Origin: an uncultured archaeon
GTDB taxonomy: Archaea; Asgardarchaeota; Thorarchaeia; Thorarchaeales; Thorarchaeaceae
NCBI GenBank assembly: GCA_964631415.1
Contig: CAZVZC010000024.1
Coordinates: 1-31,020, forward strand
DNA length: 31,020 nt
Reading direction: 5' to 3'
A program made the translations under genes and the position numbers. Under the pieces are notes generated by a model. It saw nothing but the letters and a program-made list of their open reading frames with translations. It did not search any database and was not told where the DNA came from. Shown one piece after another: positions 28,452 through 31,020 of the stretch. Position 1 is the first letter of the stretch; each line of letters opens with the position of its first letter.

Positions 28452-29657
28452 TCATCCCAAGCCTATCTTGATGGTCTGCAGCGTATGATGAATGAGCATT
28501 TGTTTCAACAAGCGGCCCTTCACCGACTGTGCAGGCGTGGCACCGATGACCAAGTCGATGATCAGGTCCCGCACGACCGGGTCAGCGGCGGCGACATCGC
28601 ATATGGTCTGTAGGCTCCTCTTTGACCCATAGAGTCTCTCTGCAACGAACCTCAGCACATTGAGTTCGGGCCTCAACAACTCCCCTATCTTCTGTTCGTA
28701 TGTGAGTATGAGCCTTGGATTGCGAGTCTTGACCATTTCGATTGCCGTGTCAGCTGCCAGCAGCCCCGAGGTGACTCCATAGAGTATTCCCTCCCCAGTG
28801 ATAGGCGACACCAGACCAGCAGCATCTCCCACGAGCATGGTCCTAGGATTGATCAGTTTCCAGCGGGGTGGACCCAGCGGCACTCTATACGCACTCGTTC
28901 TAGGCAGGCTGATTTCGACACCGGCATCAGCCTCAAGTTTTCCAACGAACCTAGTCCACTCTCCCCTCAGGTCTGTGAGTCTGTCTACCCTGCATCCGAC
29001 CCCGATGCTGATATTGTTTCTCTTGGGAAAGCACCAAGCATAACCCCACCTTGTTGCACCGAAGTAGATGTGCATGGCAAGCTCATTGTCCTCTTCTGGG
29101 ACCATTGTGATTCTTTGGATCTCAGACGGGTCCAGGGGCACATCTGCTGAGATGCAGAGGCCGACTCTGTCAGATGGCCAACTATTGCGAATACCAGTCG
29201 CACGGGCCACAATGCCATTCACGCCATCTGCCCCAATCAGGATGTGTGACTTGTGGGAGTCACCCAGGCAGAGGACGCGTACTGCATTTCCTGTCCGTTC
29301 TATGCCCACAACTCTCGTATCTTGAACCACTTCTACGCCTGCGTCCTCGGCCATGTGAAGCAAGTAGTGATCAAACCTTGACCTAGTGACCATGTTTACA
29401 GTAAGCCCTCTTCGCACTACTACAAAGCCCCGACCCGAAGGCGTATGGAAACTGACAGCACGGACATCACGGTCAACAACAGGTGCGATATCAAAGTCCA
29501 GAGTCTGCGATACACGAGGACTGAGAGCCCCACCACATGGCTTCTCTCTGGGGTGTACCGACCTGTCAAGGAGGAAGACATCCAACCCCCTGAGAGCGGC
29601 TCTTCTCGCGCAGGTTGCTCCGGCGGGTCCTCCTCCGACGACTATCAGGTCGTACAT
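28452..29657 (-). CDS. Geranylgeranyl reductase family FAD-dependent oxidoreductase
   Basis: GGGPAG, KPCGG, R..FD..L, GADG, GYAWCFP, VGDAAG..SPITGEGI. Confidence 0.92.
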   Translation of the reverse strand: MYDLIVVGGGPAGATCARRAALRGLDVFLLDRSVHPREKPCGGALSPRVSQTLDFDIAPVVDRDVRAVSFHTPSGRGFVVVRRGLTVNMVTRSRFDHYLLHMAEDAGVEVVQDTRVVGIERTGNAVRVLCLGDSHKSHILIGADGVNGIVARATGIRNSWPSDRVGLCISADVPLDPSEIQRITMVPEEDNELAMHIYFGATRWGYAWCFPKRNNISIGVGCRVDRLTDLRGEWTRFVGKLEADAGVEISLPRTSAYRVPLGPPRWKLINPRTMLVGDAAGLVSPITGEGILYGVTSGLLAADTAIEMVKTRNPRLILTYEQKIGELLRPELNVLRFVAERLYGSKRSLQTICDVAAADPVVRDLIIDLVIGATPAQSVKGRLLKQMLIHHTLQTIKIGLG

Positions 29658-29740
29658 CTCAGTTCCTCACAGATACGATGAGTCTTATCATCACAACATC
29701 AATAAATCGATGTTCATGGACTACTAGTGGGGCGTCAAGA

Positions 29741-30793
29741 GTGTCGGCAGGCAATAAGGCCTCAAAGGTCTGTATCATAACCACTGGAGGAACGATTTCG
29801 AGCATATACGATCCCAGTATCCAATCGTTGAGGCCCGGCCTTTCTGTGGATGCGCTCCTTGCTAGTCTGCCAAGGGGCATGGGAAACATCAACGTCGTCA
29901 AACAAGAGTTGTTTCAGCTTGACTCTGCTAACGCACAGCCGCATCATTGGCAGGAGATAGCGAGCGCTATCAAGGAAGCAAGTGACACCATACCAGACCT
30001 TGAGGGCATTGTTGTGACACATGGAACAGACACGATGGTGTATTCAGCCTCCGCAGTGAGCTTCATGGTACAAGACTTCGGGCGTCCGATTGTATTCACC
30101 GGCTCTCAGATTCCTGCCTCCACGCCTTGGAGCGATGGTCCTCGAAACCTGATTGATGCACTGCGCGTCGCTGCCTTCGGCGACCTTGGTGAAACCTGCA
30201 TAGTCTTCAACGGCGAGATACACAGGGCAACGAGGACCAAGAAAGTGCGTGTGAACTCCTACGATGCATTTGACTCGGTCGACCCGTCTCCCCTCGGTAC
30301 ACTGGCTCGCGACATAATCCTCTACGAGGGTAGGAAGAAGAGAAATAACCTGGTTCCCCGGTTCGACACAAGACTCGATGACCGAGTGTTTCTTCTCAAG
30401 GTGTTCCCGGGCATGCTTCCGGGTATCTTCTCACACATCATTGACATGGGTTATCACGGGATTGTGATCGAGGGCTTCGGAGCCGGCAACATTCCGACTG
30501 AGGAGAACGCGCTCACAGGGGCAATCCTCCAAGCCATTGCTAGGGACTGCGTCGTAGTGGTCAGTTCACAGTGTGCCTTCGGACAGGCCGATCCGCTGAC
30601 GTACGAAGTCGGACGCGCTGCGCTCGATGTCGGTGCCTTGAGCGCGTATGACATGACCTCAGAGGCCACAGTGGTCAAGCTCGCGTGGGTCTTGGGCCAC
30701 ACTCGCGATCCTGAACGGGTGCAAGAGATGATGTTGATAGACTACGGCGGCGAGATTCAGTATAAGAGTCCAGTAGAAGAGCATGAGACTTGA
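29741..30793 (+). CDS. ansA: Type I L-asparaginase
   Basis: TGGTI, HGTDT, TGSQIP, GFGAGN, SQC, DMTSEA..VKL. Start placed at GTG 29741; no GatD N-terminal domain. Confidence 0.88.
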   Translation: MSAGNKASKVCIITTGGTISSIYDPSIQSLRPGLSVDALLASLPRGMGNINVVKQELFQLDSANAQPHHWQEIASAIKEASDTIPDLEGIVVTHGTDTMVYSASAVSFMVQDFGRPIVFTGSQIPASTPWSDGPRNLIDALRVAAFGDLGETCIVFNGEIHRATRTKKVRVNSYDAFDSVDPSPLGTLARDIILYEGRKKRNNLVPRFDTRLDDRVFLLKVFPGMLPGIFSHIIDMGYHGIVIEGFGAGNIPTEENALTGAILQAIARDCVVVVSSQCAFGQADPLTYEVGRAALDVGALSAYDMTSEATVVKLAWVLGHTRDPERVQEMMLIDYGGEIQYKSPVEEHET

Positions 30794-30820: not shown

Positions 30821-30826
30821 TTAAAT
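30821..30826 (+). promoter_or_regulatory. Putative TATA box of the tRNA gene
   Basis: TTAAAT 26-31 nt upstream of the first tRNA base (30852). Confidence 0.55.
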
Positions 30827-30851: not shown

Positions 30852-31020
30852 GCCCGGATAGCCAAGTGGTTCGACCACGACACTAGGTCGTAGACCTTCA
30901 AACGGCGGTAGCCTGGAGCTAATCCCCGGGACTGAACCCGGGATGAACAGCCAGCTACTCTCCCTTTGGGAGGCACGAGGGCCGATCACTTCGTTCGGCT
31001 CTGCCAAAGTTCGAATCTCG
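30852..31020 (+). tRNA. tRNA-Ser(GGA) with three introns (3' end beyond the window)
   Basis: Acceptor 5' GCCCGGA-TA; D stem GCC/GGC; anticodon stem GTAGC/GCTAC with loop CT-GGA-G^A; long variable arm CTCCC-TTT-GGGAG; T arm ACG^AG-TTCGAAT-CTCG. Introns at about 30871-30899, 30919-30952 and 30978-31007. Confidence 0.88.

Follow-up and report, generated by a model that had tools for sequence, protein, structure and literature searches.

A tRNA-Ser(GGA) gene with three probable endonuclease-type introns at a contig end of a Thorarchaeota archaeon

The window analyzed here, i.e. the whole stretch of 31,020 nucleotides, is the entire contig C24 of a Thorarchaeota (Asgard) MAG (G000; 2.16 Mb in 81 contigs, 85% complete). 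At its 3' end we found a tRNA-Ser(GGA) gene split by three inserts. The first (30 nt) separates U20a from A21 in the D-loop, the second (34 nt) occupies the canonical position 37/38, and the third (30 nt) interrupts the T-stem at position 51/52 (Table 1). The original prediction of a tRNA-Ser(GGA) with one canonical and two non-canonical introns was borne out by ARAGORN on the spliced sequence, by the boundaries seen in orthologues and by covariation. In exon 1, the portion of the D-loop that follows the D-stem strand GCC reads AAGUGGUU. This exon shares 19 of its 20 bases with the orthologue in genome G005, and it is identical or nearly identical in most of the remaining orthologues.

Table 1. 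Positions of the tRNA-Ser(GGA) gene parts, the flanking features and other tRNA loci of the same genome. Positions refer to the window unless a contig of the assembly is given.
Feature	Position	Strand	Description
Upstream gene	29615..30793	+	Encodes 392 aa; N- and C-terminal asparaginase domains; candidate GatD or L-asparaginase
Putative promoter TTAAAT	30821..30826	+	TATA-box-like, -31 to -26 from tRNA 5' end
tRNA-Ser(GGA) gene	30852..31020	+	Four exons, three inserts; 3' end incomplete
Exon 1	30852..30871	+	Acceptor 5' strand GCCCGGA, U8 A9, D-stem GCC, D-loop to U20a; ARAGORN cloverleaf
Intron 1	30872..30901	+	30 nt, D-loop U20a/A21; boundaries from intron-less orthologues
Exon 2	30902..30918	+	A21-G37: ACGGC with D-stem 3' strand, G26, anticodon stem 5' strand GUAGC, C32 U33, anticodon GGA, G37
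Intron 2	30919..30952	+	34 nt, canonical 37/38; hBHBh'; ARAGORN i(38,34)
Exon 3	30953..30977	+	A38-G51: anticodon stem 3' strand GCUAC, variable arm CUCCC-UUU-GGGAG, GC, A49 C50 G51
Intron 3	30978..31007	+	30 nt, T-stem 51/52; HBh'; covariation and minimum-energy fold
Exon 4, incomplete	31008..31020	+	A52 G53, T-loop UUCGAAU, C61-G64 (CUCG)
tRNA-Gly(CCC)	C5:64442-64544		Insert in T-arm/T-loop
tRNA-Thr(UGU)	C5:13288-13425		Insert in T-arm/T-loop
tRNA-Glu(UUC)	C1:73147-73203		Insert in T-arm/T-loop
tRNA-Phe(GAA)	C1:182823-182899		Insert in T-arm/T-loop
tRNA-Leu(UAA)	C5:20671-20738		Insert in T-arm/T-loop
tRNA-Tyr(GUA)	C35:2947-3010		Called by ARAGORN after deletion of BHB insert
Further weak Rfam tRNA match	C60:4581-4669		
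Further weak Rfam tRNA match	C9:7-58		
Further weak Rfam tRNA match	C79:1-60		

For in silico splicing, the 12 bases absent from C24, i.e. C65, the acceptor 3' strand UCCGGGC, G73 and the encoded CCA, were supplied from close relatives of the same genus (G002/L028). Deletion of all three inserts then left an 87-nt class II tRNA, called tRNA-Ser(gga) by ARAGORN, just as a type II tRNA had been claimed to emerge upon their removal. All class II tRNA-Ser features were present in this product, namely a 7-bp acceptor, a 3-bp D-stem, a long variable arm, the T-loop UUCGAAU, G73 and a serine anticodon. The same tRNA, now with a canonical 34-nt intron reported as i(38,34), was called when inserts 1 and 3 were deleted, while ARAGORN gave no tRNA with zero inserts deleted or after deletion of insert 2 alone, of inserts 1 and 2, or of inserts 2 and 3. 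Thus, tRNA-Ser(gga) is called only after deletion of inserts 1 and 3, and all three inserts must hence be removed, as had been seen in the original prediction. In the raw window, no tRNA was detected by ARAGORN, nor by the Rfam model RF00005 at the gathering threshold or at E values up to 10. The RF00005 miss is expected on unspliced genomic sequence, because two of the inserts interrupt the D- and T-arms. The misses on the raw window are a limit of the scanners and no argument against the gene.

The 3' part of the gene was recovered from the same-genus genome G002 with 97% identity, continuing as UUCGAAUCUCG-C-UCCGGGC-G-CCA. Furthermore, two JGI metagenome contigs, L028 (9 kb) and L029 (from a 105-kb contig), hold the complete gene with its three inserts, ending in C-TCCGGGC-G-CCA. 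The continuation had been predicted as T followed by TCCGGGC. The acceptor strand TCCGGGC, complementary to GCCCGGA, indeed lies downstream in G002, L028 and L029, but all close relatives have C instead of T as the first base. With C as the base following the window, the first T-stem pair becomes an A49.C65 mismatch (A49 at position 30975). This mismatch is seen in every copy from the genus (L003, L017, L020 and L028) and is common to G001, G002, G003 and the strain of the metagenome contigs, while other genera have A-U or G-C at this place. Between the window and L028, the only differences are at position 37, in intron 2 and in the variable loop, the exons and introns 1 and 3 being otherwise identical.

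No continuation of C24 was found among the other 80 contigs of the assembly by exact or fuzzy pattern. However, C24 and C33 could both be placed on L028, where C33 starts ~96 nt beyond the end of C24, and the truncation of the gene is therefore an assembly gap and not biology. On L028, rps13-rps4-rps11 follow directly downstream of tRNA-Ser(GGA), and C33 carries the S13-S4-S11 operon. The contig break was also considered as the possible mark of an element integrated at the 3' end of the tRNA. This idea was rejected, as the genes downstream encode TiaS, a protein of ribosome biogenesis and the ribosomal proteins S13, S4 and S11. The tRNA gene has a housekeeping neighborhood.

A contig break falls inside the gene in the window's MAG and in the same-genus MAG alike (in G002 within intron 2), which might suggest that the inserts arose as artefacts of assembly or from chimeric joining. 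We regard this as extremely improbable, as the three-insert sequence recurs in independent assemblies, i.e. in the 9-kb and 105-kb JGI contigs and in Logan contigs of two studies, which cover the whole stretch, and as over a dozen further genomes have homologous inserts. In the four DNA runs analyzed, contigs extend beyond the end of the window; among the sequencing runs recorded for the stretch, none was listed as RNA.

The gene with asparaginase domains stops 58 nt 5' of the tRNA, and its 3' end is situated upstream of the tRNA in the metagenome contigs as well. The putative promoter lies within this interval. Orthologues of the genus and the metagenome contigs preserve it as GCTTAAAT, and A/T-rich hexamers are found at about -37 to -27 before other tRNA genes of the genome. 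Most genera of the family have a conserved GAAAAGNTGAAAAGCA at about -38 to -23 of tRNA-Ser(GGA) (L004, L007, L009-L016 and L019), while the window's genus has GCTTAAAT in its place, at equal distance. It looks as if the promoter element had been swapped in one genus.

The gene was compared with 45 orthologues from a family of 86 genomes and 16 genera, all with one to three inserts at the same sites. Intron boundaries proposed by a sliding BHB scorer were rejected, as this often favors registers giving no tRNA, and intron-less orthologues were therefore used to set the boundaries by homology. The D-arm GCCAAGYGGTTACGGC is seen in more than 30 orthologues that lack intron 1, and intron 1 can consequently be fixed at 30872-30901 without recourse to any motif. 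Intron 3 is placed at 30978-31007 by the orthologues in the same way. A D-loop position had been rightly predicted for this intron, but its length is 30 nt and not 27-29 nt. Motifs were evaluated with the BHB geometry of PMC4090602, in which the intron pairs with positions 32-35 and each 3-nt bulge is cut after its second base. In the strict form (hBHBh') a 4-bp helix separates two 3-nt bulges with the splice sites, while the relaxed forms (HBh'/hBH) have a single bulge between two helices. Introns 2 and 3 conform to this geometry.

The central helix of intron 3, GGCA/UGCC, is paired at all 4 bp and lies between the bulges CG^A and AA^A, and the inner stem (GGGCCGA/TCGGCTC) comprises 7 bp. The outer helix of this intron begins only beyond an A.G mismatch, giving an HBh' type, and the minimum-energy fold is the motif itself (z -2.04). 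In intron 2, the anticodon stem serves as a 5-bp outer helix. The central helix CUGG/ACAG is paired at 3/4 positions, the exception being G35.A; the bulges read AG^C and CC^A, and the inner stem belongs to a CCCGGG hairpin (z -3.62). The G35.A mismatch is found in most orthologues as well, and a 3/4 central helix is therefore evidently accepted by the enzyme of this lineage. For both introns the earlier description, i.e. the coordinates, helix (GGCA/TGCC), bulges and inner stem of intron 3 and the 37/38 position, 34-nt length and CUG/CAG helix plus G.A mismatch of intron 2, proved exact.

For intron 3, covariation was assessed on 14 distinct homologous sequences from six genera. In these the inner stem is 100% paired, with changes on both sides in five of its seven pairs; none of 500 shuffles reached the observed score, and slid controls paired at 12-61%. 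BHB-like motifs as good as that of intron 3 numbered 46 in the window and 48 in shuffles. The motif count alone hence proves nothing, and the weight is carried by the match to homology-defined boundaries, by covariation and by the contrast between exons and introns, which are 89% and 62% identical, respectively, between the window and G005.

Intron 1, for which the original prediction had offered no motif, has a BHB that is degenerate in the window's lineage. Its helix GUGG/CUUC has an internal U.U (3/4), the bulges are UU^C and AA^A, the inner stem is interrupted (7/9 paired), there is no thermodynamic signal (z +0.31), and the minimum-energy fold differs from the BHB. Moreover, a similar score is reached by an alternative register (helix GGUU/ACCU, bulges CG^A and UC^A), and in a 2026 preprint (bioRxiv 10.64898/2026.10.13.758758) canonical motifs are reported for no more than 33% of the D-arm inserts. 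All this would fit a situation where introns 2 and 3 are spliced while insert 1 is cut elsewhere, leaving a longer D-loop, is cut inefficiently or is kept as an enlarged D-loop. We nevertheless consider such an outcome improbable. The D-arm of the orthologues lacking insert 1 is restored by the boundaries at 30872-30901 only, a 3/4 central helix is evidently tolerated in the canonical intron of most orthologues, and a tRNA with a D-loop of 40 nt would not be functional, none being found by ARAGORN. Furthermore, homologous 30-nt inserts are situated at the same site in G005, G014, G084 and G093, and those of G014 and G005 form good BHBs at identical boundaries, with covariation. Taking the five sequences together, 86% of the cells are paired and five pairs have compensatory changes; within the central helix, every cell is paired except the U.U of the window. 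Intron 1, like introns 2 and 3, would then probably be excised, with its putative cuts at 30872-30901.

Most orthologues, including those of the same-genus genomes G001 and G003, have the canonical intron only. Homologues of intron 3 are distributed over genera g1, g3, g5, g6, g8 and g13 and those of intron 1 over g1, g3 and g12, and all three introns occur together only in the window's lineage and in G005 among the 45 orthologues. Genus g4 combines the canonical intron with a different one in the T-loop. The latter (L014/G021, L015/G006) is 29 nt long, lies at about 59/60 and forms a good BHB with the helix GUUC/GAAC and bulges GA^A and AU^A. Genus g3 covers each of the four possible combinations of presence and absence for introns 1 and 3 (L004/G005, L036/G079, L041/G084 together with L042/G093, and L056/G020), which points to a fast turnover, by loss or gene conversion, of homologous introns.

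A BLAST search of the three introns against the window's genome gave no paralogous copies, only chance 11-15-mers, and hence nothing that would indicate transposed introns or a mobile element. This differs from Thermoproteales, where intron transposition has been reported. The 2026 preprint on Asgard tRNA inserts stresses repeated gains, while the non-canonical inserts are here shared across genera, fitting old introns that were repeatedly lost. Tentatively, and with considerable doubt, the introns at 20a/21 and 51/52 may then be old and vertically inherited, with hairpins kept by selection and with repeated losses.

Pattern searches (exact and fuzzy, over the other 80 contigs), ARAGORN and Rfam found no second tRNA-Ser(GGA) in the assembly, which is 85% complete; the intact copy that the original prediction named as a sign of a pseudogene was thus not found there. 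Being the sole tRNA-Ser(GGA) found in the assembly, this gene should be what UCY decoding depends on. The incompleteness of the genome, together with the weak motif of intron 1 and the A.C at the first T-stem pair, leaves some room for a decaying pseudogene, with a functional tRNA-Ser(GGA) in the unassembled part. This seems very unlikely to us given that the A.C pair is present in all four other copies of the lineage, two of which (G001 and G003) have neither intron 1 nor intron 3, that exons, promoter box and neighborhood are conserved, that a second strain, although differing in intron 2 and the variable loop, has introns 1 and 3 of identical sequence, and that one orthologue is found at such a locus in every related genome examined. 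In our judgment the locus is, with high probability, the functional gene for tRNA-Ser(GGA) in a Thorarchaeota archaeon, present in a single copy, and its three endonuclease-type introns would be removed by the EndA of the host.

Two EndA paralogues are encoded in the genome, one on C16 (188 aa) and one as an ORF on C5. The alignment of the C16 protein, an EndA alpha, with Aeropyrum pernix 3P1Z_B covers 178 residues (E 8e-49) and has no gaps in the region of the specific loop. According to this alignment the protein keeps the catalytic Tyr, His and Lys as Y126, H134 and K165, and its K43 falls opposite K44 in the Crenarchaea-specific loop of A. pernix (GQPVGIRKPKSAEF vs GQPLDVEKPRGADF), i.e. 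the lysine that gives a broad substrate range (PMC5829648). The C5 paralogue has Thr where Methanocaldococcus (M.) jannaschii has the catalytic His, and this beta ORF is full-length, with N- and C-domains, unlike the short beta of Pyrobaculum EndA. RtcB is encoded as well. Asgard archaea, including a Thorarchaeota genome, have been found to carry an (alpha-beta)2 EndA with an L1/CSL loop (Kaneta et al. 2018, PMC5829648). The proposal that the host has a splicing endonuclease of relaxed specificity is supported by these predicted features, namely the loop lysine, the catalytic triad and the second subunit devoid of the His, which together suggest a broad-specificity (alpha-beta)2 enzyme. The likeness extends to the (alpha-beta)2 EndA of A. 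pernix (PDB 3P1Z, 3AJV; Hirata 2011, as presented in PMC5829648), which likewise has the catalytic Tyr/His/Lys and the loop lysine; the Thorarchaeota enzyme is known here by sequence, its activity and substrate range being predicted.

The gene for serine is not the only interrupted one. In the genome as a whole, ARAGORN identified 25 tRNAs and Rfam gave 33 matches. When single BHB candidates around weak Rfam matches were deleted and ARAGORN was rerun, at least six further tRNA genes (Gly, Thr, Glu, Phe, Leu and Tyr), each called only after deletion of a BHB-flanked insert of 27-32 nt, came to light in the survey that had been suggested (Table 1). The Thr(UGU) and Phe(GAA) genes carry a canonical intron in addition. 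With T-arm inserts in other tRNA genes, non-canonical introns are therefore routine for this organism.

Taken together, the likely route to the mature tRNA would start with transcription from the TATA-like box at about -30, giving a precursor of roughly 180 nt with endonuclease-type introns in the D-loop (20a/21), the anticodon loop (37/38) and the T-stem (51/52). Together with the adjoining exon bases, each intron would form a bulge-helix-bulge motif or the relaxed HBh' variant, and a heterotetrameric (alpha-beta)2 EndA, the alpha subunit of which has the lysine of the Crenarchaea-specific loop, would cleave two bases into each 3-nt bulge. RtcB would then ligate the four exons into the 87-nt class II tRNA with G73 and the encoded CCA. 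On the strength of the restored cloverleaf, the covarying homologues and the presence of the enzymes, the introns are very probably removed by this tRNA-splicing machinery.

Triple-intron tRNAs were described in the original prediction as known mainly from Thermoproteales, a view that is by now outdated, since Asgard archaea have been published as even richer. In Atabeyarchaeia and Freyarchaeia, 92-95% of the tRNA genes are interrupted (PMC11291895), and up to five inserts per gene, together with a widespread two-paralogue EndA in Asgard, were reported by Goswami et al. 2026 (bioRxiv 10.64898/2026.10.13.758758). The same preprint finds that D-arm inserts are systematically missed by tRNAscan-SE and that non-focal Asgard families average 0.91 inserts per gene. 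The systems in these two studies resemble the present one in belonging to the same phylum, in having several BHB-type inserts per gene in D-arm and T-arm positions, in D-arm inserts that escape standard scanners, and in their two-paralogue EndA. They differ in that both studies are centered on other classes, the word "Thor" being absent from the main text of the preprint, and in that a tRNA-Ser(GGA) gene with three inserts is exceptional among the Thorarchaeota orthologues compared here. Multi-intron Asgard tRNAs are thus already published (2018, 2024 and 2026), and this gene adds a Thorarchaeota example.

Among the Thermoproteales cases treated in the review of Yoshihisa 2014 (PMC4090602, citing Sugahara 2007/2008), the tRNA-Pro(UGG) of Pyrobaculum islandicum, with introns at 25/26, 37/38 and 56/57, likewise combines one canonical and two non-canonical introns, and the multi-intron tRNAs of this order, as presented there, share the BHB/HBh' motifs and a host with an (alpha-beta)2 EndA. 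P. islandicum differs in phylum (Thermoproteota), in the tRNA concerned and in the intron positions. An intron-position list in this review names 20/21 and not 51/52; as the list ends in "etc.", no claim of a novel position is made here. A eukaryote tRNA gene with introns in the same three arms offers, as far as its description goes, another parallel, with a Sen-type endonuclease and no sequence relationship.

The biological weight of the finding is modest, and no new question is opened by it. For annotation, the ARAGORN and Rfam misses mean that the genome would be scored as having no tRNA that reads UCU and UCC. The predicted EndA, with its (alpha-beta)2 organization and broad-specificity loop, would belong to the enzyme type for which kinship with the eukaryotic Sen2/Sen34 complex has been discussed. 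The set of 45 orthologues with one to three homologous introns may help in the study of intron retention and loss. Lastly, if the introns at 20a/21 and 51/52 should indeed prove old, inherited and selectively kept, this locus would be a natural system where loss, not gain, dominates the dynamics of tRNA introns, and there would be room for an intron role, e.g. in guiding modification or in controlling the maturation of the only UCY decoder.
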